Source: a virus
Lineage: Duplodnaviria; Heunggongvirae; Uroviricota; Caudoviricetes
Length of the DNA: 37,226 nt
IMG/VR virus record: IMGVR_UViG_2529292736_000004
Direction: 5' to 3' (one strand)
Below are positions 2,950 to 5,347 of this stretch, in pieces. The notes under the pieces are model-generated. The model searched no databases and had not been told where the DNA came from. It worked only from the letters and a program-made list of their open reading frames with translations. The stretch's first letter is position 1. Each line of letters starts with the position of its first letter. The position numbers were made by a program, and so were the translations under genes.

Positions 2950-3010
2950 GGCTTCCAGCGTCCTGCTGACGGTTAAATAGTACGATATGTACTTTACAAG
3001 ATCAATACAA
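2950..3010 (-). promoter_or_regulatory. Putative pL/OL region
   Basis: Lies upstream of nutL and N. Contains the 13-mer atatgtactttac (2986..2998), which recurs in inverted orientation in the cI-cro intergenic region (5301..5313). Confidence 0.45.
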
Positions 3011-3196
3011 TTTGTTGTAAGTTGGCGTGGTTTTTTATAACGCTTTGTATTTAATAGTGTTGTTTTTTAGCGTGGATGTATTGCCTCGGCGATGTAAGGA
3101 GAGATCAGAATTGCGTGGTTTAGTGGGTTGCATCTATTTATTTTTCAATAAATACAATTGGTTATGTGTTTTTAGGTGGGGCGATCGTGAGGCAAA

Positions 3197-3226
3197 GAAA
3201 ACCCGGCGCTGAGGCCGGGTTTTTCT
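3197..3226 (-). terminator. Intrinsic terminator ending the cI operon (tIMM-like); near-symmetric, so potentially bidirectional
   Basis: aaaacccggc-gctgag-gccgggtttttc: GC-rich stem with T-runs on both sides, directly downstream of the 258-aa ORF stop at 3225. The sequence here matches the lambda tIMM region from memory. Confidence 0.7.
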
Positions 3227-4001
3227 AGGCTACCAGAGACTCAATCCAAGAGTCTCTGGTATGGAATGGCAACACTCGTGCGGTATCATTAAATAGTAGT
3301 GATAGTTGCTGTAGCTCAGGTGTTAACCCATCGCTGTCAACTATTACAAATCTATTGTTTATGTCAGGAACGACCTGACTTAAGTCAACAATCTTCCCAA
3401 CTGTTGAGTGGGCAGTATTCCATCCCTTACTGCTGGCAAGGCTTACCGTAAACCCGCGTTTTGGTGGTATTAGTCGAGACTCATTCCTTAGCGTTAACGG
3501 AACAGTAATGTTATGCCCACTAATACCTTTCACTTTTTCCTTTAAGGCTAGTCGCTTCCCAAGCCCTGCTGATTTTAAGTAACTGATTACACATTTTTCG
3601 AACTTATCGTCTTTGACCTCAGCATACCAATCAGCAGTTTGGGCGGATGCAAGAATCCCACCACGAATAACATTTGCAGTTACCTGTCCAACGGACGACT
3701 CATCTGCCCACGCAGATATCTCTCCAGAATCATTTAATGAAATTCCTTGCGAAGCGAGTGATGACCTAATCAGATCAATTTTCTTTTTAGTCAGGTGGAT
3801 GCCGCGTGATTCAATATTCATCAATGTATCGCAGTAGTCTGTAACCCTATACTGACCACTCATCTCTTGAACGAATACACTTATCTGCTCACAATCATCG
3901 TAGTATGTGAAGGGACTAATAACGCGCAGCAACGTGTCGCTCATTGGGTGGCATTCAAACCCGAGCTTAGATATGACTGTTGAACACGTTACATTTCCCA
4001 T
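3225..4001 (-). CDS. Hypothetical protein (258 aa), distal gene of a two-gene cassette in the rexA/rexB position
   Basis: Long ORF in a low-GC block, same strand as cI, overlapping the upstream ORF by 13 nt and ending at the operon terminator. I do not recognise the family. The start may instead be the internal Met (MSDTLL..., 3944). Confidence 0.6.
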   Translation of the reverse strand: MGNVTCSTVISKLGFECHPMSDTLLRVISPFTYYDDCEQISVFVQEMSGQYRVTDYCDTLMNIESRGIHLTKKKIDLIRSSLASQGISLNDSGEISAWADESSVGQVTANVIRGGILASAQTADWYAEVKDDKFEKCVISYLKSAGLGKRLALKEKVKGISGHNITVPLTLRNESRLIPPKRGFTVSLASSKGWNTAHSTVGKIVDLSQVVPDINNRFVIVDSDGLTPELQQLSLLFNDTARVLPFHTRDSWIESLVA

Positions 4002-4531
4002 GATAGCTGACCTGATTTATCTTGATTAGGTAAAGGTGGGCTGCCTTCATATATGATATTAAGCGCCTCGCAAAAATAATTCCAGTAGCCAAAAAAATCA
4101 TCTGGCTTGATGTTCGTTTCAAGCTTAAGTGCAATTTCTTCCCCAGCTGATTCGAAGTACATGTGATAGTGAGGACCTCGAGCCACCTCAACAAAATCTG
4201 GATGGTTCACTATAGATTTATTACGGTGTGGCTTGTTATCCGCAGGGTACGGGTCAAGCGCGTAAATGCGCCTGTCATGAAGAAACATCACAAATGAAAT
4301 CTTCACTATATCCACCCCTTCAACGATAGGAGGACGCCAGTGAAGCATAAATCTTATGCCTGTGATTGGGTTGCCAATTTCATCAAAAGCTTTGAGATCC
4401 AATTTAAACCAGATTGGGGTTCGTCCCTCACTTCCGGTCCATGTAACTCCGCTAAAAGTTACTTTTTTCAAGCGAGTAATAGCTTGGTCAACCTCTTTCT
4501 GGGTAGGCTTAAAGTCGCCTTTTTTAGCCAC
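3989..4531 (-). CDS. Hypothetical protein (180 aa), proximal gene of the cassette downstream of cI
   Basis: ORF starting with GTG at 4531, with GGTGA about 9 nt upstream, 46 nt after the cI stop. No family recognised; no obvious transmembrane segment. Confidence 0.6.
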   Translation of the reverse strand: MAKKGDFKPTQKEVDQAITRLKKVTFSGVTWTGSEGRTPIWFKLDLKAFDEIGNPITGIRFMLHWRPPIVEGVDIVKISFVMFLHDRRIYALDPYPADNKPHRNKSIVNHPDFVEVARGPHYHMYFESAGEEIALKLETNIKPDDFFGYWNYFCEALNIIYEGSPPLPNQDKSGQLSWEM

Positions 4532-4577
4532 TGATTCGTATCACCATGAAAGTTATTGTTAATACCTGTGCTTCTTG

Positions 4578-5237
4578 TCACCCAAACGTCTCTTCAGGCC
4601 ACTGACTAGCGATAACTTTCCCCACAACGGAACAACTCTCATTGCATGGGATCATTGGGTATTGTGGGTTTAGTGGCTGTAGAAACACCTGACCGCTATC
4701 CCTGATCAGTTTCTTGAAGGTAAACTCATCACCACCAAGTCTGGCTATACAGAAATCGCCTGGCTCAACAGCCTGCTCAGGGTCAACCAGAATTAACATC
4801 CCGTCAGGAAAGCTGGGCTTGGAACCTGTTGGTGCGGTCATTGAGTTACCTTCAACCTCAAGCCAGAATGCAGAGTCACTGGCTTTTTTGGTTGTGCTTA
4901 CCAATCTCTCCGCATCGCCTTTGGTAAAGGTTCTGAGTTCTGGAGAGAACATCCCAGCCTGAACATGAGAAAAAACAGGGTACTCATATTGTTTTTTAAC
5001 TGGGGCCGATGAGTATTCGCCAACAGGTGAAAATGTCCCGTCGTGGTTGAATGATATGTTATCAATACCAAGGTATTTAAACACCACACCAATATCACTA
5101 AGAGATGGATGACGAGATCCGCGCAACCAGTGTCCAATCCCACCCTGCGTCATACCTAGCTCTTCGGCTAACTTCTCTTGAGTTATGCCGAGCTCTTTCA
5201 TTCTGGATCTAGCCAGTTCATACCATTTCATTTTCAT
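4578..5237 (-). CDS. cI: CI-type repressor: lambda-identical LexA-like (S24) C-terminal domain fused to a different HTH N-terminal domain
   Basis: C-terminal ~150 aa ([22 protein letters not shown]...[26 protein letters not shown]...WPEETFG) matches lambda cI; N-terminal ~80 aa do not. The track ORF begins with a TTG at 5279; the first ATG in context is at 5237, so the exact start is uncertain. Confidence 0.85.
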
Positions 5238-5279
5238 GTCCTTATTATTACGCTTTGTACTGGAACCATCCATGCACAA

Positions 5280-5347
5280 TGTGTATTTTTACTTGTATTC
5301 GTAAAGTACATATTGTATTTTTTATTCGTGTTTACTATGGAGGGCAT
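5280..5347. promoter_or_regulatory. Divergent pRM/pR promoter and OR operator region
   Basis: AT-rich 68-bp interval between divergent cI and cro. Contains gtaaagtacatat (5301..5313), the reverse complement of the OL-region motif. Confidence 0.55.

Follow-up and report, generated by a model that had tools for sequence, protein, structure and literature searches.

The switches closest to the locus studied here are those of the lambdoid phages. In lambda, genes and regulatory sites follow the order N - pL/OL - accessory genes - cI - pRM/OR/pR - cro - cII. OL and OR each hold three dyad sites of 17 bp; those named O1 overlie the lytic promoters, OR2 adjoins the -35 of pRM, and OR3 lies on pRM itself. 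The lambda sites are spaced by ~24/20 bp at OL and 24/23 bp at OR, and pairwise cooperativity of the lambda repressor is natural at ~24 bp. In 434 and P22, cI and Cro are both of the HTH_3 type and carry near-identical recognition helices which read one shared operator set; the 434 operator has the consensus ACAA-N6-TTGT and that of P22 is based on TTAAG...CTTAA. Among Stx-associated lambdoid phages, the switches of 933W and BAA2326 carry OR1-3 and have been experimentally footprinted (Koudelka and Friedman laboratories), 933W having only two OL sites. Occupancy of OR3 was proposed to explain hair-trigger induction in switches of this type (PMC5977221).

A further immunity group is that of VT2-Sakai (Sp5), whose members are AP005153, Stx2 II, 1717, Nil2, 2851, YYZ-2008 and the PA phages, together with the non-Stx lambdoids 2G7b and PhiR11_1. 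Cross-immunity of these phages was reportedly treated by Fattah et al. 2000, and a table of predicted operators is said to be given by Yin et al. 2015. The record of the Stx1-converting phage AP005153 annotates three plus three "putative operators" together with pL, pR and pRM signals, and six 17-mers are listed as OR1-3 and OL1-3 of VT2-Sakai in Table S1 of PMC10742460. The sole EMSA found on the Sakai sites used lambda cI and gave a near-nonspecific KDapp of 3.7-6.4 uM; no report of binding of these sites by their cognate repressor was found in the accessible literature.

The DNA analysed here, called the window, is a stretch of 37,226 nucleotides carrying a lambda-like prophage of E. coli which, judged by its sequence, belongs to the VT2-Sakai immunity group. 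It has the gene order given above for lambda. The genes that frame its switch, and the terminator of the immunity transcript, are:

2515-2787, minus strand: antiterminator N, first gene of the pL transcript
3196-3226, minus strand: intrinsic terminator hairpin, ending the cI-cargo (immunity) transcript
4578-5237, minus strand: cI repressor, 219 aa, with an HTH_3 N-terminal domain and a Peptidase_S24 C-terminal domain
5348-5563, plus strand: Cro, 71 aa, HTH_3, recognition helix TQGAIGHWESG

The cI protein is identical to that of AP005153 over 219 of 219 residues and Cro over 71 of 71. Both cI domains were clearly recognised (HTH_3, E = 1.9e-10; Peptidase_S24, E = 1.1e-28). The C-terminal domain matches lambda cI structures (E = 2.6e-96), is almost identical to residues 101-236 of lambda cI; the Ala-Gly site of cleavage is present in it, as is the catalytic Ser/Lys context. 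The match of the N-terminal domain to that of lambda is marginal (E = 0.0024). Cro is of the HTH_3 all-helical type, unlike that of lambda, and P22 C2 is a weak sequence match to it (E ~0.01). Since the recognition helices of the two window proteins are nearly identical (TQGGIGHW in cI, TQGAIGHW in Cro), both should read the same sites, as in 434 and P22; the comparison is suggestive of a Cro that reads the cI operators.

A sequence-only reading of this DNA had pointed to a 13-mer shared in inverted orientation by the pL side and the cI-cro gap, and had taken it for candidate operator half-sites of one repressor. Exact copies of the 13-mer ATATGTACTTTAC occur twice in the 37 kb window. The right copy, present on the plus strand as the reverse complement GTAAAGTACATAT, is at 5301-5313 as first given, and the left copy, first placed at 2986-2998, is in fact one base away at 2985-2997. 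The gene calls put them where that reading had them, on the pL side and between cI and cro. With at most two mismatches allowed, four matches are found in the window against 0.39 expected. The longer similarity also suspected around the 13-mer is there: 2969-2997 and 5301-5329 form an inverted repeat of 29 nt with 83% complementarity. The full operator set, for which the same reading had suggested a search of both intergenic regions, has six predicted sites, listed here with the two 13-mer copies:

2978-2994, no strand: OL1, TAGTACGATATGTACTT, same as VT2-Sakai OL1
2985-2997, plus strand: left copy of the 13-mer ATATGTACTTTAC, comprising OL1 positions 8-17 and 3 flanking bases; pL spacer positions 3-15
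3003-3019, no strand: OL2, CAATACAATTTGTTGTA, 1 mismatch to VT2-Sakai OL2
3036-3052, no strand: OL3, TATAACGCTTTGTATTT, 1 mismatch to VT2-Sakai OL3
5246-5262, no strand: OR3, TATTACGCTTTGTACTG, 1 mismatch to VT2-Sakai OR3; overlaps the putative pRM -10 and spacer
5272-5288, no strand: OR2, ATGCACAATGTGTATTT, same as VT2-Sakai OR2; abuts the putative pRM -35, centre ~ -43 from the cI ATG
5301-5313, minus strand: right copy of the 13-mer, reading GTAAAGTACATAT on the plus strand, comprising 3 flanking bases and OR1 positions 1-10; pR spacer positions 3-15
5304-5320, no strand: OR1, AAGTACATATTGTATTT, same as VT2-Sakai OR1; best weight-matrix match

The recognition unit is a predicted 17-bp imperfect dyad of consensus AAGTACA-N3-TGTACTT, not the 13-mer. 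All six sites have invariant AC...GT cores and pair at 3-6 of 8 symmetric positions each, so that their dyad symmetry is partial. The 13-mer is made up of one half-site AAGTACA, the operator centre TAT and three flanking bases GTA, which differ between relatives; in OL1 and OR1, the predicted promoter-overlapping operators, its two copies make up the part nearer the -35. The earlier reading was right about operators and imprecise about half-sites. Its proposal that an inverted motif marks the OL and OR operators of one repressor is supported by the comparison with related phages: OL1 and OR1, in which the copies lie, belong to a three-plus-three set which flanks the immunity region and is annotated at homologous positions in AP005153 and found as the same six 17-mers in PMC10742460 Table S1, three being identical in the window and three differing by one mismatch. 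Positions, order and spacing of the operators are also those of the VT2-Sakai group. The cargo encoded there between cI and OL is unlike that of the window, and in Sakai the OL1 and OR1 sides share only the 11-mer GAAGTACATAT, compared with 13 nt in the window, the flanking DNA being different. The operators are already annotated and published for this group of Shiga-toxin phages, so there is nothing new in the kind of system.

The six sites are the top six weight-matrix matches in the 37 kb window, a ranking which is circular as the matrix was trained on the same six; leave-one-out scores were 11.7-18.8 bits. No comparable site was found elsewhere in the 37 kb, barring one marginal match near OL. 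This seventh match, a candidate "OL4" at 3150-3166 (14 bits), was rejected as an established member of the set: 20% of shuffles reach this score window-wide, and its core C varies in relatives. Nor were there alternative middle operators that would give symmetric OL and OR spacing, nothing scoring >5.3 bits in either region beyond the listed sites. Searched against Rfam, neither the OL nor the OR region yielded an RNA family, and a full-text literature search for the operator sequences returned no match.

Three promoters were assigned to the two regions:

2977-3005, minus strand: putative pL, -35 TTGATC (3005-3000), 17-nt spacer, -10 TACTAT (2982-2977); from sequence, AP005153 promoter annotation and conservation
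5244-5272, minus strand: putative pRM, -35 TGGATG (5272-5267), 17-nt spacer, -10 AATAAT (5249-5244); from sequence and AP005153 annotation, invariant in relatives
5293-5321, plus strand: putative pR, -35 TTGTAT (5293-5298), 17-nt spacer, -10 TATTTT (5316-5321); from sequence, AP005153 annotation and conservation

Hexamers are weak, with 7/12 consensus positions for pR and 8/12 for pL. Because a sigma-70 consensus scan of 2780-5400 (9/12 threshold) reported none of pL, pR and pRM, the assignments rest on reading by eye, on the AP005153 annotation and on conservation; in relatives, the TTGA of the pL -35 and its entire -10 are conserved. The pRM start is predicted on, or close to, the first base of the cI start codon (A of ATG, 5237), and cI is likely made from a leaderless transcript, as in lambda. 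In both putative lytic promoters the 13-mer occupies positions 3-15 of the 17-nt spacer. The mirrored arrangement of the 13-mer would follow from pL and pR firing in opposite directions, each with O1 in the same register.

Conservation was examined in distinct variants of the two regions, 32 for OR and 36 for OL. The operator cores are kept and the DNA between them drifts: a minor allele of at least 10% was seen at 6 of 60 columns in half-site cores and at 37 of 92 between operators (Fisher p = 4e-5, only indicative because relatives are not independent samples). Substitutions within operators fall mainly at the central positions 8-10. More than 80 related loci share the core of the 13-mer match; core-anchoring failed for six loci, which leaves the conclusions unaffected. 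Across relatives the distance between OL and OR ranges from 0.88 to 2.45 kb, cargo being swapped inside the OL-cI interval with OL and OR in place. In prophages of Proteus, Providencia and Moellerella, the N-terminal domain of the repressor is ~50% identical to that of the window and three ATAC-N5-GTAT dyads are found in the cI-cro gap. A pair of such dyads also lies downstream of cI in 4 of 5 of these loci, in surrounding DNA that is not alignable with the window. The TAC-N5-GTA layout is kept in the Proteus and Providencia relatives.

Several other explanations of the shared sequence were weighed. It might reflect a common origin or constraint of the pL and pR promoter cores rather than a repressor site, as the 29-nt inverted repeat covers the spacer, -10 and start region of both promoters and the 13-mer lies wholly inside the 17-nt spacers. 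A promoter spacer can normally drift without constraint; the bases conserved here, however, are those of the dyad cores. Moreover, the dyad recurs at OL2, OL3, OR2 and OR3, which are not spacers of promoters of the same type, and Proteus and Providencia relatives retain it where the surrounding sequence is lost; a promoter-core origin is very unlikely. As to chance, the two intergenic regions are AT-rich, with a GC content of 43% and 33%, and 13 nt, the longest exact inverted match between 2860-3224 and 5238-5347, is equalled or exceeded in 3 of 2000 dinucleotide-preserving shuffles. This corresponds to an empirical probability of ~0.0015 (analytic expectation 5e-4), and the match stands in an identical promoter register on both sides, with a core conserved across relatives that are not near-clonal and whose variation is informative. 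We give a fortuitous match next to no weight.

The copies also stand in inverted orientation with 2.3 kb between them, on either side of a module with cargo that varies between phages, and could be termini or pieces of a mobile inverted-repeat element bracketing the immunity region. A longer mobile repeat, which the sequence-only reading had itself named as the case against an operator, is excluded because the similarity ends after 29 nt. The repeat, at 83%, occurs in the window as one pair only, no transposase is encoded between the copies, and cargo is exchanged inside the OL-cI interval without displacing OL and OR, all of which makes a mobile origin scarcely credible. Finally, the presence of an HTH_3 Cro encoded beside OR could mean that Cro, or else a host protein, is the main ligand of the sites in place of cI. 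The near-identity of the cI and Cro helices predicts the same sites for both, though, and a three-plus-three layout around pRM, pR and pL fits the needs of a cI/Cro switch; binding mainly by Cro or a host factor is most improbable.

Sequence comparison and conservation make it very probable that the six sites form the OL1-3/OR1-3 operator set of a VT2-Sakai-group lambda-like prophage, with the 13-mers in OL1 and OR1. If the switch works as in lambda, prophage cI would bind the six sites as a dimer through its distinct HTH N-terminal domain, and the essentially lambda-identical C-terminal domain would serve for oligomerisation and for autocleavage stimulated by RecA. The centres of OL1 and OR1 lie at ~ -17 in the putative pL and pR; because they cover the spacer and -10, bound cI would exclude RNA polymerase and keep the lytic genes silent. 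OR2, centred at ~ -43 of pRM and abutting its weak -35, would be placed to activate cI transcription, and OR3, which overlaps the pRM -10, would shut pRM off at high cI. After induction Cro, with nearly the same recognition helix, would bind the same sites. OL and OR are ~2.3 kb apart in the window, as they are in lambda, and cooperativity and looping would be expected by the same analogy.

Number and type of the sites, and their predicted placement relative to the putative promoters, agree with lambda, as do the likely leaderless cI start and the cI C-terminal domain. The specificity is not that of imm-lambda: the lambda operators TATCACCGCCAGTGGTA are unrelated to AAGTACA-N3-TGTACTT, and those of the window are not of the TATCACCGC...GGTGATA type. 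The operators of 434 and P22 lack the TAC-N5-GTA core, and sequence identity is low. In 933W and BAA2326, repressors and operator sequences also differ from those of the window, and the sites there are footprinted while ours are defined by sequence.

In the window, spacing is 25/33 bp in OL and 32/26 bp in OR; O1 to O3 spans 58 bp on both sides, the middle site being offset. Over 83-92 loci, OL1-OL2 (25 bp) and OR2-OR3 (26 bp) are invariant, and OR1-OR2 (31-34 bp) and OL2-OL3 (33-34 bp) are length-polymorphic. Because the C-terminal domain is essentially that of lambda, with its cooperativity at ~24 bp, the pairs formed by the repressor might be OL1-OL2 at the left and, instead of OR1-OR2, OR2-OR3 at the right. 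We consider this pairing unlikely; it was not found stated in the accessible literature. If true, it would tie activation and autorepression of pRM directly together, keeping repressor levels low, and would be a structural reason for the hair-trigger induction of Stx prophages, an idea discussed for other Stx phages (PMC5977221).

The window carries an intact-looking VT2-Sakai-type immunity switch. The prophage and the main Stx2a phage of E. coli O157:H7 Sakai are therefore predicted to be homoimmune, a relation that would matter for superinfection and, in co-lysogens, for the induction of Stx phages.

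A pair of 13-mers in inverted orientation, which the sequence-only reading had placed around the immunity region, was confirmed as two exact matches:

2985-2997, plus strand: left copy, ATATGTACTTTAC
5301-5313: right copy, reverse complement of ATATGTACTTTAC

The right copy lies where that reading had located it, and the left one, given as 2986-2998, is one base further leftward. No further exact copies were found across the 37,226-bp window, where four matches with up to two mismatches were counted vs 0.39 expected. When 2860-3224 was compared with 5238-5347, the 13-mer was the longest exact inverted match. 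The more extended alignment noted around it is indeed present, as a 29-nt inverted repeat with 83% complementarity (2969-2997/5301-5329).

Gene order across the region is that of lambda:

2515-2787, minus strand: N (Pfam N_peptide)
2860-3224: non-coding stretch
3225-4001 and 3989-4531, minus strand: two accessory genes (DUF1828 and DUF6978 domains)
4578-5237, minus strand: cI (HTH_3 and Peptidase_S24 domains)
5238-5347: cI-cro gap (110 bp)
5348-5563, plus strand: cro (HTH_3 domain)
5705-6001, plus strand: cII

In megablast searches against phage genomes, the N-pL and cI-cro parts matched Escherichia phages 2G7b and PhiR11_1 and Shiga-toxin phages of the VT2-Sakai group (AP005153, Stx2 II, 1717, YYZ-2008, Nil2, 2851 and PA phages) at 95-99.7%; neither accessory gene is shared by these phages. 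cI and Cro are each 100% identical to their counterparts in AP005153, a Stx1-converting phage record whose annotation carries three ‘putative operators’ per side together with pL, pR and pRM signals. Table S1 of PMC10742460 gives the same six 17-mers under the names VT2-Sakai OR1-3/OL1-3, and Yin et al. 2015 (PMC4587872) likewise describe Sakai-type phages as having predicted OR1-3 and OL1-3. The full set in the window, compared here with VT2-Sakai, is:

2978-2994: OL1, TAGTACGATATGTACTT, identical
3003-3019: OL2, CAATACAATTTGTTGTA, one mismatch
3036-3052: OL3, TATAACGCTTTGTATTT, one mismatch
5246-5262: OR3, TATTACGCTTTGTACTG, one mismatch
5272-5288: OR2, ATGCACAATGTGTATTT, identical
5304-5320: OR1, AAGTACATATTGTATTT, identical

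Symmetrising these sites gives the consensus AAGTACA-N3-TGTACTT, with A5-C6 and G12-T13 invariant across all twelve half-sites. Judged by its sequence, the element is the already known OL1/OR1 pair, annotated and published, of a VT2-Sakai-type immunity region. The earlier interpretation as OL and OR operators of one repressor was right in substance, since the 13-mers lie inside these sites; the ‘half-site’ label does not hold, since each 13-mer comprises 10 bp of its operator (positions 8-17 of OL1, positions 1-10 of OR1) plus three flanking bases.

Hexamers for three promoters can be picked out in the sequence and accord with the AP005153 annotation:

5293-5321, plus strand: pR, TTGTAT (5293-5298), 17-nt spacer, TATTTT (5316-5321)
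3005-2977, minus strand: pL, TTGATC (3005-3000), 17-nt spacer, TACTAT (2982-2977)
5272-5244, minus strand: pRM, TGGATG (5272-5267), 17-nt spacer, AATAAT (5249-5244)

The hexamers are weak matches, and a consensus promoter scan reported none of pL, pR and pRM; we infer the three assignments with the backing of conservation. The centres of OL1 and OR1 lie at about -17, covering spacer and -10. OR2 is centred at about -43 of pRM and adjoins its weak -35, and the pRM -10 is covered by OR3. From the pRM hexamers, the cI transcript is predicted to be leaderless as in lambda, beginning at or near the A of its start codon (ATG; 5237).

The 13-mer occupies positions 3-15 in each of the pR and pL spacers (TCGTAAAGTACATATTG and TTGTAAAGTACATATCG), which is why it is seen as a mirror pair. 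Were it purely a relic of the promoter spacers, the four other dyad sites and the conservation pattern would be left unaccounted for. That pattern was obtained from 166 loci, drawn from phage records and from genome and viral contigs, among which 32 OR and 36 OL sequences are distinct. Half-site cores vary less than the DNA between operators: a minor allele of at least 10% was found in 6 of 60 core columns vs 37 of 92 between-operator columns of the non-coding stretches (Fisher p = 4e-5, Mann-Whitney p = 4e-6, both indicative only because the relatives are not independent). Most changes within operators affect central positions 8-10 or the edges, and the three non-operator bases of the 13-mer sit in variable DNA. 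The exact pL-pR shared run ranges from 8 to 14 nt among relatives, the commonest being the 11-mer AAAGTACATAT; the full 13-mer occurs in 10 loci, window included. This conservation also contradicts a chance match, which is unlikely in any case: a match as long arose in only 3 of 2000 dinucleotide-preserving shuffles (analytic expectation 5e-4). A longer mobile repeat, the scenario that would have removed the motif from regulation, is excluded: the similarity extends over no more than 29 nt, only one pair is present, and no transposase is encoded between the two copies.

Site spacing is asymmetric (OL1-OL2 25 bp, OL2-OL3 33 bp; OR1-OR2 32 bp, OR2-OR3 26 bp), with an O1-O3 span of 58 bp at both OL and OR. 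The short gaps are invariant among relatives (OL1-OL2 25 bp in 83 loci, OR2-OR3 26 bp in 92 loci) and the long ones vary through a T-run (OR1-OR2 31-34 bp, OL2-OL3 33-34 bp). A seventh operator-like site, AAATACAATTGGTTATG (3150-3166; 14 bits), lies 114 bp beyond OL3 and did not reach window-wide significance; it sits in a block conserved among cargo-carrying relatives, and its core C varies in some relatives. A candidate small ORF (3111-3212, plus strand; 33 aa, MRGLVGCIYLFFNKYNWLCVFRWGDREAKKTRR), located between OL3 and the immunity terminator, has a TTG start, an AAGGAG Shine-Dalgarno 9 nt upstream and a match to phrog_22865, of unknown function (E = 2.7e-9).

The cI C-terminal domain (residue 84 on) is nearly identical to that of lambda cI (3bdn, E = 2.6e-96; 8gmu, E = 3.2e-89), with the Ala-Gly cleavage region and catalytic context kept, whereas the N-terminal domain shows marginal similarity only (1lli, E = 0.0024); a lambda oligomerisation/autocleavage domain is therefore joined to a different DNA-binding domain. 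The recognition helices of cI (TQGGIGHW) and Cro (TQGAIGHW) are nearly equal, as would be predicted for two proteins that recognise a common operator set; overall identity is 35% over 62 residues. Cro is clearly homologous to PDB 28tn (82 aa, named ‘lambda repressor-like protein’; E = 4.5e-17, residues 1-69), so that a solved structure is available for this Cro family.

The accessory genes, encoding proteins of 258 aa (DUF1828) and 180 aa (DUF6978), occupy the place of lambda rexA/rexB and are probably part of the cI transcript. They match PHROGs families of unknown function strongly and the PADLOC candidate defence system PDC-M24 weakly (M24B E = 5e-7, M24A E = 4e-4). Cargo at this position differs among relatives (e.g. 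an NYN-domain gene in phage 2B8), and of 5426 complete E. coli genomes only 13 carry the entire OL-to-OR module with DUF1828/DUF6978 cargo.

Elsewhere in the prophage, the loss of one base from an A-run near 6491 breaks replication gene O into two ORFs (6034-6564 and 6444-6932), as judged against the intact, otherwise 99% identical O of PhiR11_1. Either O is a pseudogene, which would make the prophage defective, or the missing base is a sequencing error in a homopolymer. An IS3-family element (12469-13682; two overlapping ORFs, minus strand) contains an ALIL frameshift pseudoknot (13285-13401; Rfam, 116 bits), and part of an IstB-like ORF is present at 186-467, by the left edge of the window. 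The lambda cIII thermoregulator element RF01804 is matched at 834-892 (minus strand, 88.5 bits), indicating a lambda-like cIII region.

Most likely the switch works by the lambda scheme. cI dimers at the O1 sites would occlude pL and pR; at OR2 cI would activate pRM and at OR3 repress it. RecA-stimulated autocleavage of cI would lift repression, and Cro would then occupy the same sites. Pairwise cooperativity and OL-OR looping are plausible because the C-terminal domain is of lambda type; OL1 and OR1 are 2326 bp apart in the window and 0.88-2.45 kb in relatives. Given this domain and the asymmetric spacing, the cooperative pair at OR could, speculatively, be OR2-OR3 instead of OR1-OR2. The only EMSA found on VT2-Sakai sites used lambda cI as protein (KDapp 3.7-6.4 uM).

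Two short contigs from MAGs labelled Segatella copri and Bacillota, with cI N-terminal domains 100% and 93% identical to that of the window, most likely derive from enterobacterial phages and were mis-binned. Klebsiella phage phiKp_30 (LC768498, 3360-3600) has retained OL1, OR3-OR1, cro and OL2 in degraded form, with no cI between; this immunity type seems to have lost its cI there by deletion, presumably leaving the phage obligately lytic. In Proteus, Providencia and Moellerella prophages and an Ignatzschineria-labelled MAG contig (L012-L016), the cI N-terminal domains show about 50% identity, with recognition helix SKGAVGHW and a lambda-like C-terminal domain, and the cI-cro gap carries three ATAC/CAC-N5-GTAT dyads. 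In those from Proteus, Providencia and Moellerella, two TAC-N5-GTA sites with a spacing of 23 bp are also present 1.6-2.7 kb downstream, where the DNA is otherwise not alignable with the window. The five loci share the switch architecture of the window and represent a divergent branch of the same operator family.
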